Source: Candidatus Methanophagales archaeon
GTDB lineage: Archaea; Halobacteriota; Syntropharchaeia; Alkanophagales; Methanospirareceae
NCBI GenBank assembly: GCA_017883965.1
Contig: JAFNKG010000001.1
Span: 14,893-78,892, forward strand
Direction: 5' to 3'
Length of the DNA stretch: 64,000 bases
This document shows positions 31,204 through 33,780 of the stretch, piece by piece. How positions within the stretch are numbered: position 1 is the stretch's first letter; each line of letters opens with the position of its first letter. A program made the translations under genes and the position numbers. A model generated the notes under the pieces. That model saw nothing but the letters and a program-made list of their open reading frames with translations. It made no database searches and was not told the DNA's origin.

Positions 31204-31290
31204 TATTTAAAGCTTCCGAATCTTCAGAAAAATCTGGTTTTATCTTATTTATCCTCAAATAACCTATTTAAGGGGAGATAAGAAATAGTG
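31204..31290 (+). promoter_or_regulatory. about 85 bp promoter/5'-UTR element upstream of ectA (copy 1 of a duplicated element)
   Basis: tttaaagcttccgaatcttcagaaaaatctggttttatcttatttatcctcaaataacctatttaagg is about 90% identical to 33694-33780. Confidence 0.7.
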
Positions 31291-31317
31291 ATCTATAGAA
31301 TAGGAGGGATATGACTC

Positions 31318-31869
31318 ATGTCGGTAAGTAGCATGGTGAAAAGCGGTTCAATCTATACCGAGCAAAACAAGCTTGTTTTGCGTAAACCGCAGGTGAAAGA
31401 TGCAGCAAAAATCCACGCTTTGATAAACGCATGTAAACCGCTGGATTTGAACTCAGTCTATAGCTATTTATTGCTCAGTCAGCACTTTGCCGATACCTGT
31501 GTGGTCGCCGAAGAGAGTGGTGAGATTCTAGCTTTCCTGTCGGGGTATCGTCTACCTTCAGATCCAGAAGTCTTTTTCGTATGGCAGGTCGCGGTCAGCA
31601 GTCGAATAAGGGGATGCGGCGTCGGTAAGCGCCTGCTCTGTGAGGTTTTACAAAGAACAGTCTGTCAGGGCACTCATTTTATAGAAACCACCATAACTCT
31701 TTCCAATACCGCTTCTTGGCACCTGTTTCGGTCTATTGCTAGAGATCTTAATGCTCACTGCGAGGAAAGTGTATACTTTTCAAAGGAGCTTTTCGGACAA
31801 GAGAATCATGAGGTGGAATATCTGCTTCGTATCGGTCCGTTTAACATCAATATGGAGGATAGCAAATGA
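31318..31869 (+). CDS. ectA: L-2,4-diaminobutyrate acetyltransferase
   Basis: GNAT-fold protein, 183 aa, heading a tight ectABC operon with overlapping stop and start codons. Confidence 0.85.
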
Positions 31870-33179
31870 AGAATTGTAATACTATCAAACGTCTTGAATC
31901 AAAGGTTCGCAGTTATTGTCGCGACTTCCCGGTGGTATTTACAAAAGCTCGAGGTGCTATCTTAGAAGACGATACGGGCAAGCAGTTTATTGATTTCCTC
32001 GCTGGTGCGGGAAGCCTGAATTACGGGCATAACAACCCGGTGTTGAAGAAAAAGCTGCTGGAATACATCAAGTCTGATGGTATTGCACATGGTTTGGATT
32101 TAGCAACCGAGGCGAAGAAAAACTTCATGGAAACATTTGAGTCTTTAATTATGCGCCCCCGAAACATGGAATACAAGCTACAGTTCACCGGGCCTACGGG
32201 CACGAACGCTGTCGAGGCTGCTATAAAGATAGCCCGTAAAGTGACCGGACGTCAGACCATAGTATCGTTTACCAATGGCTTCCACGGAGTGACACTGGGT
32301 TCTCTCGCGGCTACGAGCAACAGCCACTTCCGTAATGGTTGCGGTATACAGCTCCAAGGTACTGTATTTATGCCCTACGACGGTTACATGGGCGATGGTA
32401 TTGATACCACTGAATATTTAGACCGGATGCTGACCGATGGAAGTAGTGGTTTGGATCATCCAGCAGCTGTAATCGTTGAGACCATCCAGGGCGAAGGTGG
32501 TGTCAACGTGGCTAGCTTTGAATGGCTGCGCTCCTTAGAAGAAGTCTGCCATAAGCACGACCTTTTGATGATTGTGGACGACATACAGATGGGGTGTGGA
32601 CGTACCGGCACCTTCTTCAGTTTTGAAGAAGCAGGTATTTCTCCTGATATTATTACCCTCTCGAAATCCTTGAGTGGATATGGGCTGCCCTTTTCACTCG
32701 TACTGCTGAAGCCAGAACTGGATCAGTGGAAGCCTGGAGAGCACAGCGGCACCTTTCGAGGCAATAACCTCGCCTTCGTGACTGCTATGGCTGCACTAGA
32801 GCACTACTGGCGTGACGATAGGTTCTCTAAGGATGTGAAACGCAAGGGGCAGATTGTACGTAATCGTTTAGAGAAGCTGGTAAGTAAGGATTCTGAAGGC
32901 ATTTTGTCCGTACGAGGTCGTGGTATGATACAGGCATTGGACTGTAAGACTGGCGAATTGGCCAGCAAGATCACAGCCACGGCATTCGAAAAGGGGGTAA
33001 TCATGGAGACCTCCGGTTCGGATGGACAGGTTATCAAGTTCCTCATGCCGCTAACCATTACCAACGAGCAACTGAACCGAGGTCTCCACATTCTCGAAGA
33101 GAGCGTAAAGAAAGTCATGGGAACTATTTGCAGCAGGCTTTTGAGCGAGAGTGAACTCGAAATAGGAGTTGTGACATGA
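31866..33179 (+). CDS. ectB: diaminobutyrate-2-oxoglutarate transaminase
   Basis: Class-III PLP aminotransferase, 437 aa. Sits between ectA and ectC with ATGA overlaps. Confidence 0.9.
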
Positions 33180-33574
33180 TTGTAAGAACCCTACAGGAAG
33201 CGGAGAAAACTGACAGACGCGTAGTTTCCGATAATTGGGAGAGCGCACGCTTGCTGCTGAAAGGCGACAACATGGGCTTTTCTTTCCATATAACTACTAT
33301 TTACGCAGGTACAGAAACAGCCATCTGGTATCAGAACCATTTAGAATCTGTGTACTGCATGGAAGGGGAAGGTGAAGTAGAAACGGTGGACGACGGCAAG
33401 ATTCATCCTATCAAGCCAGGCACCATCTATATTCTGAACAAGCACGACAAGCACTTGTTGCGGGCCAAGACGCAATTGAAGTTGGTCTGCGTCTTCAATC
33501 CACCCCTCCACGGAAAGGAGATCCATGACGAGAACGGCGTTTATCCACTGGAGGCCGAAGAAATTATCGACTGA
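33176..33574 (+). CDS. ectC: L-ectoine synthase (cupin)
   Basis: 132 aa. [16 protein letters not shown]...[28 protein letters not shown] matches the EctC N-terminal signature. Confidence 0.9.
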
Positions 33575-33693
33575 GCATACAAACAAATACCTGGCACTTT
33601 ATTTGAAATAGGAATCTGAATGATGAAGAATTATCTCGAGAATCTTCTTACCGACTTAACCCACCCATCGTTTAGTGACAAACACGCTATCTA

Positions 33694-33780
33694 GTTAAAG
33701 CTTCCGAATCTTCAGAATAATCTGTTATTATCTTATTTATCCTCAAATAACCTATTTAAGGCAGTATAAGAAATATTTAC
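33694..33780 (+). promoter_or_regulatory. copy 2 of the duplicated about 85 bp promoter/5'-UTR element, upstream of the asnB-like gene
   Basis: agttaaagcttccgaatcttcagaataatctgttattatcttatttatcctcaaataacctatttaagg. Ends a few nt before the ATG at 33783. Confidence 0.7.

Follow-up and report, generated by a model that had tools for sequence, protein, structure and literature searches.

The window, by which we mean the whole 64,000-nt stretch of DNA analysed here, comes from an ANME-1 (Methanophagales) archaeon. It contains a gene for an Lrp/AsnC-family regulator (lrp; 147 aa, 30737-31180, minus strand), genes for ectoine biosynthesis (ectA 31318-31869, ectB 31866-33179 and ectC 33176-33574, plus strand) and an asnB-like gene (33783-35372, plus strand) for a 529-aa glutamine amidotransferase/adenylating synthetase with the Pfam domains GATase_7 and Asn_synthase. 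The neighbours described in the earlier note on this DNA are confirmed: they encode a divergent Lrp/AsnC-family regulator, EctABC and a class-II amidotransferase/Asn_synthase protein. The three Ect proteins score above the model cut-offs (EctA 198 bits against 121 for TIGR02406, EctB 671 against 552 for TIGR02407, EctC 212 against 128 for PRK13290), and their genes are adjacent and co-oriented with 4-nt reading-frame overlaps, as expected of an ectABC operon. Outside ANME-1, the closest relatives of EctB were found in Methanothrix (75-77% identity). Read-through from ectC into the asnB-like gene may occur.

In the case of Lrp, the protein combines an AsnC-type winged HTH with a C-terminal RAM domain (HTH_AsnC-type, PF13404, 1.6e-12; HTH_24, PF13412, 2.8e-14; AsnC_trans_reg, PF01037, 25.6 bits at a cut-off of 25), and its length lies within the ~140-160 aa of the Lrp/AsnC family. 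Among solved structures, P. furiosus LrpA is the closest (1i1g, E=2.9e-21, residues 1-123). However, the protein falls into none of the named subfamilies LrpA, LysM, AsnC and Lrp: it lies far under every NCBIfam equivalog cut-off, the best being LrpA with 76 bits against 250 and the others lower, which sets it apart from archaeal LrpA. We place its start at ATG 31180; a 173-aa call with a TTG start was discarded, as that start is not conserved.

Next to these genes lies a direct repeat, here called E, with one copy (E1, 31201-31296) between lrp and ectA and a second (E2, 33689-33784, plus strand) in front of the asnB-like gene. A repeat search of the 64 kb returned both as a single two-copy family with 86% identity over 96 nt, ungapped, and a blastn self-comparison of the window aligned 31201-31287 with 33689-33775 at 89.7% over 87 nt (E=3e-26). 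Thus, the two-copy repeat of ~90% identity upstream of ectA and the asnB-like gene, as first described from the sequence alone, is real, and it is unique in the window. Its 23-mer and 34-mer cores occur exactly twice each in the 64 kb when up to 3 mismatches are allowed, with 0 expected from 100 shuffles. The ectA start codon (ATG 31318) follows the end of E1 by 22 nt, and E2 ends at the asnB-like ATG (33783). An assembly artefact was rejected, the same order lrp-E-ectABC-E-asnB being present in an independent JGI assembly (L029). Across 185,579 species genomes, the exact 23-mer was found at lrp- or asnB-linked loci only, and it is confined to ANME-1-type MAGs. E is therefore not the genome-wide repeat which the earlier note had named as its own possible refutation.

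Because the host is an ANME-1 archaeon, E was read as an archaeal promoter and operator, and the positions of TATA boxes, BRE and transcription starts were assigned from general archaeal promoter geometry. From left to right, E1 would first contain the TATA box of lrp, predicted at TTTAAATA (31204-31211, minus strand), 24-31 nt upstream of the lrp ATG, a distance that implies a leaderless lrp mRNA. It is followed by a 16-bp imperfect palindrome, TTCCGAATCTTCAGAA (31214-31229), which is a candidate Lrp operator, by an A/T-rich spacer of 35 nt (31230-31264) and by TATTTAAG (31265-31272, plus strand), the predicted rightward TATA box, which would serve ectABC. The palindrome is centred 47 bp upstream of the middle of the rightward TATA box and overlaps the predicted BRE position of the lrp promoter. 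The right end of E1 (31273-31296, plus strand) corresponds to the TATA-to-start stretch of a former asnB-like promoter and ends in a relic of the asnB start codon (ATA, 31295-31297); transcription of ectABC is predicted to start at ~31294-31297. Beyond this point, the ectA leader (31297-31317, plus strand) comes from the ect cassette and carries a Shine-Dalgarno-like GGAGG (31303-31307). The motif (A/G)GGGATATGAyTCATG is common to all type-1 ect cassettes and is absent from asnB-adjacent E copies.

In E2, the palindrome (33702-33717) and the 35-nt spacer are intact, the lrp TATA box (33692-33699) is degenerate, and the predicted rightward TATA box TATTTAAG (33753-33760, plus strand) lies 22 nt before the asnB-like ATG, which implies a leaderless mRNA here as well. 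Segment by segment, the identity between both copies is 46% in the lrp-proximal part, 100% in the palindrome (18/18, including two bases to its left), 91% in the spacer (32/35), 100% in the TATA box, 67% from the TATA box to the start and 35% beyond. Conservation of E2 is thus limited to the parts needed for rightward transcription. Upstream of E2, the 5' end of lrp has left a decayed remnant (33628-33673, minus strand; ~15 codons and the start codon), seen as a weaker homology that extends for ~45 nt to the left of this copy. It is colinear with lrp 31140-31185 at 65% identity, and its local score of 19, compared to 9.3 +/- 1.7 for shuffles, was reached by 1 of 2000 shuffles. The full palindrome occurs in the window in E1 and E2 only: a search of the whole window for TTCNGAANNTTCNGAA with <=2 mismatches gave 4 matches against 6.4 expected, perfect at E1 and E2 only, and thus no sign of extra operator sites.

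The repeat had originally been called a promoter/leader element, and E does lie directly 5' of both coding regions, as a transcribed cis-regulatory RNA (leader, riboswitch or small RNA) common to both operons would. However, most of E is located upstream of the predicted transcription start, and a leader would not fit between the invariant TATA-like box and the asnB-like ATG, which are only 22 nt apart. What is conserved in E is a palindrome at the DNA level and a TATA box rather than the paired arms of an RNA. When both copies and the minus strand were folded as RNA, the MFE z-values were around zero compared to shuffles (-0.40, +0.02 and -0.52), and no Rfam match at E<=1 was obtained for 31000-34000. 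An RNA element is therefore extremely improbable. A scan for sigma-70 promoters and intrinsic terminators, irrelevant to an archaeon, gave chance-level matches. E should best be read as an archaeal promoter with an operator, not as a bacterial promoter/leader; what remains valid of the original description is that both copies are control DNA with a promoter and that they are linked to the divergent Lrp gene.

For comparison, 32 related loci were collected, in a biased census, since E itself served as the anchor of two scans. Across these 32 loci, E proved to be the conserved stretch between lrp and the asnB-like gene, which form a divergent pair, and the lrp orthologues are 84-92% identical across all E-bearing loci. 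As in divergent promoters of the asnC-asnA type, regulator and target share a conserved intergenic region with a palindromic site. The best named matches of the AsnB-like protein are from ANME-1 GoMg4 and Methanophagales. In nine loci (L009, L010, L011, L016, L017, L018, L022, L024 and L025) the order lrp-E-asnB is uninterrupted and ect genes are absent; these loci include the most divergent AsnB lineages (73-75% identity). In the other loci, a cargo is placed between E and the asnB-like gene, each cargo with its own copy of E. Four classes of cargo could be identified: ectABC of two unrelated types, a pair of methyltransferase and HAD phosphatase (MTase-HAD), and an ectC-like cassette consisting of an ectC-like/EutA-like/methyltransferase set. 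Three copies of E in a row are found in ANME-1 GoMg4. L019 has three copies and reads lrp<E>MTase-HAD, then E-ect-murL-like, then E-asnB. Regarding the function of the MTase-HAD cargo, the best PDB matches are phosphoethanolamine N-methyltransferases at an E of ~3e-4, which is too weak for an assignment, and the HAD protein gave no match.

Important insight was gained from remnants of the asnB 5' end that lie between E and the cargo. These comprise ~63 codons, with the catalytic Cys lost, in L013/L014, 51 codons in L003, 25 in L023, 7 in L004/L019 and 4 in L012/L030. When the window is aligned with L012, L030, L029, L013 and L016, the remnant before ectA shrinks from ~63 codons (L013) to 4 (L012/L030) and finally to none in the window. 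An lrp remnant upstream of a downstream E copy is found in the window only. The native ect clusters of Methanothrix (L033) and ANME-1c (L015) have a small HTH gene instead, and neither lrp nor E. From the asnB remnants, and from E being native to the lrp<->asnB-like pair in genomes without ect genes, it follows that ectABC was recruited to the asnB-like promoter. The earlier note had assumed the opposite, with the amidotransferase brought under the control of ectoine synthesis; judging from the gene orders compared, it was evidently ectABC that captured the asnB-like promoter and not the reverse, and E was evidently reused for other cargos.

The copies of E are a natural experiment on which of its parts are under selection. 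The E core shows an identity of 0.79 compared to 0.61 at four-fold degenerate sites of lrp (253 locus pairs), and it is still 0.70 identical where the lrp four-fold sites fall below 0.4. By this measure, E is evidently selectively conserved, i.e. under purifying selection. The palindrome TTCCGAATCTTCAGAA is invariant or nearly so in all copies, including those of the most divergent lineages. TATTTA is invariant in every copy and lies 24-30 nt before the ATG in asnB-adjacent ones. The spacer is variable in sequence, its length being exactly 35 nt in 34/34 copies, also in those without lrp. The lrp TATA box reads TATTTAAA or a near variant in lrp-adjacent copies and is degenerate (TAGTTAAA, CGCTTAAA, CACTTAAA) or absent in lrp-less copies.

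These distances bear on the idea that E is a recombination or attachment site of a cassette-capture system, so that its copies would be by-products of site-specific integration and not promoters. It is true that E flanks every cargo and that one slot has received four different cargos; additionally, the window's E2 agrees in its left part with the E1 of L005, as could be expected from recombination within E. However, a fixed TATTTA-ATG distance and a fixed 35-nt spacer are constraints of the promoter type, the junctions vary (asnB remnants of 0-63 codons, an lrp remnant in the window only), and neither integrase nor transposase was found in this neighbourhood of the window or at the related loci. 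With variable junctions and no recombinase nearby, site-specific integration was rejected as the main explanation and is very unlikely. Homologous recombination through E would be compatible with a promoter function and does not replace it.

A second question is whether the palindrome matters for the rightward genes at all. Both copies could be constitutive core promoters, with the palindrome used for autoregulation of lrp only and carried as a passenger in E2, in which case ectABC and the asnB-like gene would not be co-regulated. In line with this, the palindrome is eroded and the TATA box intact in the downstream copy of L029, and the downstream copies behind the MTase-HAD cargo start inside the left half of the palindrome, so that the left half-site is missing. 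Given L029, operator control of the asnB-like gene is apparently not retained in every lineage. Yet the window's E2 has lost lrp, the lrp TATA box and the lrp-proximal DNA (46%) and has nevertheless kept the palindrome (18/18) and the spacer (32/35). The full palindrome is also kept in the lrp-less copies of L003, L007, L019 and L023, and the 35-nt phasing between palindrome and TATA box is invariant in lrp-less copies too. A passenger palindrome is thus rather improbable.

Altogether, we propose that E was the bidirectional control region of an ancestral divergent lrp<->asnB-like pair in ANME-1. The palindrome would be the likely operator of the adjacent Lrp/AsnC-family protein, and the rightward TATA box would set the transcription start at the asnB-like ATG or immediately upstream of it. 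In the lineage of the window, a horizontally acquired ectABC of the Methanothrix type would then have been joined to the rightward promoter where transcription starts, while the asnB-like gene would have kept or regained a second promoter-operator (E2) together with an lrp stub. As a result, ectABC and the asnB-like gene would be two transcription units that start with the same operator-promoter and hence are probably both under the one Lrp protein. Because operator and BRE position of the lrp promoter overlap at E1, this protein would also act there as a repressor of lrp. Co-regulation of both units would follow naturally from copies of E that are linked to lrp and not genome-wide. For this explanation as a whole, i.e. 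a copied lrp<->asnB-like control region, captured by ectABC and under shared Lrp control, we estimate a probability of roughly 0.7. Binding of Lrp to E, the sign of regulation, the physiological signal and the TATA and transcription start assignments are what we infer from sequence. A factor other than Lrp could bind the palindrome, as it differs from the Lrp boxes known to us: we know of no counterpart of TTCnGAAnnTTCnGAA among them, and published boxes are A/T-centred.

The uncultured ANME-1 archaea account for much of the methane removed in anoxic marine sediments and feature prominently at saline seeps; to our knowledge, almost nothing is known about their transcriptional control. The locus offers a concrete testable triplet with predicted roles, consisting of the 147-aa Lrp, the 16-bp palindrome and, at a spacing of 35 nt from it, the TATA box. 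It would also be a case in which ectoine genes that arrived by horizontal transfer became part of an existing archaeal circuit via promoter capture, the promoter being reused for several other cargos.

In E. coli, AsnC is an activator of asparagine synthetase A and an autorepressor, with asparagine as the signal (PMC8707732). Similarly, an Lrp/AsnC regulator is here divergent from a gene of the asparagine synthetase type with a common intergenic control region, and the position of the operator predicts autorepression. In contrast to asnC-asnA, the host is an archaeon with a predicted TATA/BRE promoter, the target is a class II amidotransferase of the AsnB type without the catalytic Glu instead of AsnA, and the control region was copied to head additional operons. 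Archaeal precedents in the Lrp family, with sites close to the TATA box or further upstream, are autorepression by P. furiosus LrpA, the upstream activating sites of M. jannaschii Ptr2, and LrpA1-aspB3 of Halobacterium. The Lrp of the window belongs to the same family, with LrpA (1i1g) as its closest PDB match, and as in these systems one palindrome, the candidate site, overlaps the regulator's own promoter and lies upstream of the target TATA box in fixed phasing.

Known ectoine regulators are EctR/MarR at biosynthetic clusters, and AsnC/DoeX and EnuR at catabolic clusters (Czech et al. 2018, PMC5924519). Like other ectoine clusters, ectABC here adjoins a dedicated regulator gene. In bacteria, however, AsnC/Lrp goes with catabolic and not with biosynthetic clusters, and the association of Lrp with ect appears to be secondary here, via insertion of ectABC behind the asnB-like promoter. 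In terms of the general concept of promoter capture or regulatory rewiring, a foreign operon was fused to a host promoter at the transcription start, and the host gene keeps a duplicate. What distinguishes the present case from generic promoter capture is that it is iterated, with four classes of cargo and as many as three promoter copies in tandem around one regulator gene, and that this took place in an uncultured archaeal order. In the literature on ANME-1 with ectoine, Lrp or asparagine synthetase we found no description of this locus; the ANME-1 literature notes only genes for mannosylglycerate and DIP (PMC4335971).

In the case of the AsnB-like enzyme, TIGR01536 gave 328 bits (cut-off 267), but over positions 1-380 of 517 only, and PRK09431 (AsnB) gave 302 bits compared to a cut-off of 499; a PEP-CTERM amidotransferase model was discarded, its score being far under the cut-off. 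The N-terminal Cys nucleophile is present (MCSICG), and the equivalents of the glutamine-site residues Arg49, Asn74-Gly-Glu76 and Asp98 align with 1CT9 (E. coli numbering). The synthetase site keeps its PP-loop (SGGVDS), the D and E of G-A-D-E (Asp351/Glu352) and the K of REKD vs RQKE (Lys449). At the position of the catalytic Glu (E. coli E348, human E364) there is a Gln, with TGQGADELFAGY against SGEGSDEVFGGY. Gln takes this position in 57/57 motif-matched sequences, and the five bacterial and Methanosarcinales homologues shown read TGQAADE. Human asparagine synthetase is inactive both as E364Q and as E364A (PMC6748925).

Such an enzyme could have a product other than asparagine, in line with the original proposal of an amidotransferase that had joined an ectoine osmostress regulon to make or supply an amidated osmolyte, like AsnO for NAGGN. 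The element common to ectABC and the asnB-like gene agrees with this, and so do surroundings rich in compatible-solute genes: mpgS/mpgP lie upstream, scoring above cut-off, a GH38 protein is related to mannosylglycerate hydrolase, and MscS adjoins the asnB-like gene in ANME-1 GoMg4. This context hints at possible osmotic control. However, the recruitment ran in the other direction, as seen from the nine ect-less lrp-E-asnB loci and the asnB remnants before ectA. The AsnO/NAGGN precedent does not apply either, as TIGR03104 gave 187 bits compared to a cut-off of 570 and no ngg partner was found, the neighbours being ectC, GH38 and CN hydrolases. Moreover, the pairing of AsnB-like protein and CN hydrolase extends across two domains of life and includes Deltaproteobacteria, in contexts without osmolyte genes nearby. 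Overall, we consider recruitment for an amidated osmolyte unlikely.

More speculative, and doubtful as a whole, is an extension of the capture explanation in which the lrp-E unit would be the hub of an expandable cis-regulon in ANME-1. Each horizontally acquired stress-solute operon would receive an Lrp-operated promoter copy derived from the asnB-like gene, so that as many as three such units would form an array next to mpgS/mpgP and MscS. As the founding member, the asnB-like enzyme would then not be an asparagine synthetase but would amidate another carboxylate, possibly converting mannosylglycerate to mannosylglyceramide. Independently of its product, the enzyme belongs to a widespread clade of ‘asparagine synthetases’ without the residue required for asparagine synthesis, and the automatic annotation of this clade is therefore probably wrong.

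A repeat search of the window returned a single two-copy family, at 31201-31296 (E1) and 33689-33784 (E2), a direct repeat with 86% identity over 96 nt. Blastn of the window against itself aligned 31201-31287 with 33689-33775 at 89.7% over 87 nt (E=3e-26), and both cores named in the earlier note occurred exactly twice in 64 kb with up to three mismatches allowed, and not at all in shuffled sequence. The duplicated element that had been described upstream of ectA and of the asnB-like gene is thus borne out: the end of E1 lies 22 nt from the ectA ATG (31318), and E2 reaches to the asnB-like ATG (33783). 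Family searches also agreed with the neighbouring genes as first described, namely an Lrp/AsnC-family regulator gene (lrp, 30737-31180, minus strand), ectA, ectB and ectC (plus strand, each above its NCBIfam equivalog cut-off) and a gene for a 529-aa class-II glutamine amidotransferase/Asn_synthase (asnB-like, 33783-35372, plus strand). The overall order is mpgS, mpgP (both scoring above cut-off), GH38a, CN hydrolase, EutA-like, methyltransferase, reversed lrp, E1, ectABC, E2, asnB-like and GH38b. An automatic gene call extended lrp to a TTG at 31258 (30737-31258, minus strand, 173 aa), placing E1 within the coding sequence; the lrp start is ATG 31180 (147 aa), where the homologues as well as the alignments to PDB and NCBIfam begin.

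The window sequence is a metagenomic scaffold (ENA ERZ23499174, scaffold_178). Among named organisms, the closest matches to the asnB-like protein come from 'ANME-1 cluster archaeon GoMg4' and 'Methanophagales archaeon', and a short way downstream follow cdhB and an HdrA/MvhD fusion. The host is therefore archaeal, and a sigma-70 promoter scan, with matches at chance level, is irrelevant. An assembly artefact was excluded, as the same order is present in an independent assembly (L029), the only other locus with the exact architecture of the window.

To place E in a wider context, related loci were collected. Among 185,579 species genomes, the 23-mer TTAAAGCTTCCGAATCTTCAGAA gave ten exact-match stretches, all in ANME-1-type MAGs and all adjoining an lrp or an asnB-like orthologue; E is consequently not a common genome-wide repeat, the alternative raised in the earlier note. 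A gapped-pattern scan of JGI metagenomes added eleven loci, and look-ups of AsnB-like and EctB homologues added others that were chosen independently of E. Every locus was mapped with an E profile (nhmmer) and tblastn of the window proteins. Since E itself served as the anchor of two scans, the census carries some bias, and it consists of short contigs with many truncated loci and with taxon labels as given by the depositors. In nine loci (L009, L010 module 1, L011, L016, L017, L018, L022, L024 and L025) a CN hydrolase gene, reversed lrp, E and asnB-like follow each other uninterrupted, and these loci include the most divergent AsnB-like lineages (73-75% identity). Judged by this gene order, E is the intergenic region of a conserved divergent lrp-asnB-like pair. 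All four loci found solely via AsnB-like homologues (L016-L019) carry lrp and E upstream. In the case of native archaeal ect clusters (Methanothrix L033, ANME-1c L015), a small HTH gene stands at the head, with neither lrp nor E.

The anatomy of E was derived from an alignment of 22 copies. The block CTTCCGAATCTTCAGAA is invariant and includes a 16-bp imperfect palindrome, TTCcGAAtcTTCaGAA, which has no occurrence in the window outside E1 and E2; the remainder consists of a variable A/T-rich stretch and of TATTTA, which does not vary. Palindrome and TATTTA are separated by exactly 35 nt in all 34 copies measured, and TATTTA ends 24-30 nt before the asnB-like ATG. In archaea the TATA box has its centre about 26-27 nt ahead of the transcription start. 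With this geometry the asnB-like transcript is predicted to start at or beside the ATG and would be leaderless. For ectA, the predicted start is at about 31294-31297, with a leader of about 22 nt carrying a Shine-Dalgarno sequence. On the minus strand the predicted lrp TATA, TTTAAATA (31204-31211), precedes the lrp ATG by 24-31 nt. A leaderless mRNA is therefore predicted here too, and the left half of the palindrome takes the BRE position of this predicted promoter. In L017, a locus of a divergent lineage, a TAAAG-TTaCCGAATC segment is locally duplicated beside the palindrome (7890-7925), giving an additional half-site. The earlier term 'leader' did not survive this analysis. An RNA leader or riboswitch is unlikely, since the folding z-scores of E are close to zero (-0.4, 0.0 and -0.5), Rfam gave no match for E and there is no space for a leader ahead of asnB-like.

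The E core is conserved beyond neutral sites, with a mean pairwise identity of 0.79 vs 0.61 at lrp four-fold degenerate sites (253 locus pairs), and of 0.70 where these sites are near saturation. Between E1 and E2, identity amounts to 65% in the lrp coding remnant, 46% in the lrp-proximal promoter DNA, 7/8 in the lrp TATA, 18/18 in BRE plus palindrome, 32/35 in the spacer, 8/8 in the rightward TATA, 16/24 from TATA to start and 35% beyond the start. As far as the sequence tells, E2 retains only the parts required by a rightward operator-controlled promoter.

In the remaining loci a cargo lies between E and asnB-like, with a second E before asnB-like, and four cargo classes could be identified. 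Type 1 ectABC is found in the window, L029, L012, L030 and L013/L014 (EctB 81-84% identical to that of the window). Type 2 ectABC with a MurL-like gene is present in L003, L004/L007 and L019, whose proteins share only 40-62% identity with type 1. A 401-aa methyltransferase with a 287-aa HAD-IIB protein (MTase-HAD; L002/L006, L005, L008, L010 module 2, L019, L020, L021, L026 and L027) is the commonest cargo behind E, for example at 98-2163 of L002. The HAD-IIB protein has its motif I near residue 207 and may be permuted or two-part; the top PDB matches of the methyltransferase are phosphoethanolamine N-methyltransferases at only E ~3e-4, which points weakly to a choline- or betaine-type route. 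The fourth class, an ectC-like/EutA-like/methyltransferase set, occurs in L023, where 436-2637 holds E, a 25-codon asnB remnant, the ectC-like gene (129 aa), the EutA-like gene and the methyltransferase, up to the lrp 3' end. The window has these EutA-like and methyltransferase genes upstream of lrp (28895-30611), where both the ectC-like gene and an E copy are missing. ANME-1 GoMg4 (L019, QBUO01000084) shows three serial E copies: reversed lrp, E and MTase-HAD, then E, ect and murL-like, then E, asnB-like and MscS. Its MscS-type mechanosensitive channel gene (9682-10524) is directly 3' of asnB-like, followed by a second CN hydrolase, an arrangement reminiscent of the ect-mscS linkage of Nitrosopumilus.

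In L012, L030 and L013, asnB-like is replaced by ectABC. Both L012 and L016 have EF-2 downstream, thus ectABC and asnB-like occupy the same slot. CN hydrolase fragments flank the lrp-ectABC block in L013 (6275-6529 and 9660-10070) and follow ectC in L012 and L030; this suggests that a single event removed both the asnB 3' part and the 5' part of the CN hydrolase gene downstream of it. Site-specific attachment at E is unlikely, as the cargo junctions fall at differing positions and the neighbourhood contains no recombinase. Cassettes may instead be exchanged by homologous recombination through the lrp, E and asnB flanks. The left part of E2 matches E1 of L005, the genome with upstream genes most like those of the window.

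Regarding the direction of capture, many cargo loci carry a decayed asnB-like 5' piece directly after the upstream E copy: about 63 codons with the catalytic Cys changed to Tyr in L013/L014, 51 in L003, 25 in L023, 7 in L004 and L019, and 4 in L012 and L030. The ectA leader (A/G)GGGATATGAyTCATG is common to every type-1 ect cassette, and in the window the remnant is reduced to a relic ATA (31295-31297), with this leader and its GGAGG directly after. The remnants and the relic indicate that the right side of E1 was once joined to asnB-like. Read in this way, ectABC captured the asnB-like promoter, and the reverse direction is rejected. Upstream of E2, at 33628-33673, lies a decayed stub of the lrp 5'-end (local alignment score 19; shuffles 9.3 +/- 1.7, with 19 reached by 1/2000). 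This stub suggests that the window arrangement arose from two serial lrp-E modules, the second of which has since lost its lrp; L010 still has such a series.

In the proposed mechanism, Lrp would bind the palindrome, with the neighbouring A/T-rich DNA as a probable further contact. At E1 it would block BRE/TATA of lrp, leading to autorepression, and at both copies it would act from a site 47 bp ahead of the TATA centre, at constant helical phase, to modulate TBP/TFB recruitment to the rightward promoter. One common signal would in this way reach both ectABC and asnB-like. Binding, its sign and the effector are what we infer, as is every functional statement on transcription. Promoter copies without shared regulation would agree with L029, where the downstream E (reverse strand, 3942-4009) keeps the TATA region and has an eroded palindrome (CTTCCGGATCTGCAAAGAA), and with downstream copies behind MTase-HAD cargo, which begin within the left half-site; operator control is thus not uniformly retained. 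This alternative is contradicted by copies without lrp that retain palindrome and phasing, and we keep to a probable shared control by Lrp. Archaeal precedents for such regulators are LrpA, Ptr2 and LrpA1. The closest paradigm is E. coli asnC-asnA, where asnA is activated, asnC is autorepressed and asparagine relieves (PMC8707732). In bacteria, AsnC/Lrp regulators go with ectoine catabolic clusters and EctR with biosynthetic ones (PMC5924519). An osmotic signal is a possibility that only the context suggests: compatible-solute functions are abundant around the locus (mpgS, mpgP, and MscS in GoMg4), and a published discussion treats ANME-1 as a salt-tolerant ecotype that has mannosylglycerate genes (PMC4335971). 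In the literature we found no description of ect genes, Lrp control or E in ANME-1. The kinds of components are already known (divergent Lrp/AsnC module, archaeal TATA promoter, promoter capture by acquired genes); new is their combination, one operator-promoter serving as portable head for several cargo operons grouped around one regulator, in an archaeal order that is uncultured.

In the case of the asnB-like protein, the Ntn Cys, glutamine-site residues, PP-loop, Asp351, Glu352 and Lys449 (E. coli numbering) are kept, and TIGR01536 scores 328 bits (cut-off 267) with a match spanning only positions 1-380 of 517. In the motif TGQGADELFAGY (residues 356-367), Gln replaces the conserved catalytic Glu (E. 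coli Glu348, human Glu364), as in 57 of 57 retrieved sequences with a matched motif. Five deltaproteobacterial and Methanosarcinales homologues inspected at this motif read TGQAADE, also with Gln, and the Gln clade extends to deltaproteobacterial homologues at 53% identity. The human mutants E364Q and E364A lack activity (PMC6748925). A CN hydrolase gene lies immediately 3' of the homologue in Deltaproteobacteria (L031, L032) and likewise after asnB-like in ANME-1 loci L003, L018, L019 and L022. Substitution, inactive human mutants and CN hydrolase pairing make the label 'asparagine synthetase B' doubtful. The suggested analogy to AsnO of NAGGN synthesis was not upheld either (TIGR03104, 187 bits vs 570; no ngg gene). 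Speculatively, the enzyme could form an amide on another carboxylate, e.g. mannosylglyceramide, a salt-favoured solute in Rhodothermus (PMC1224877).

Finally, two GH38 paralogues (mannosylglycerate-hydrolase-like; 25522-28120 and 35733-38322) bracket the entire lrp/ect/asnB-like island. They share 89.3% DNA and 85% protein identity, a divergence similar to that of E1 vs E2. Unlike this bracketing pair, the two GH38 genes of L016 stand in tandem. A further tandem gene pair in the window (14174-15338 and 15358-16522) shows 87% DNA identity.
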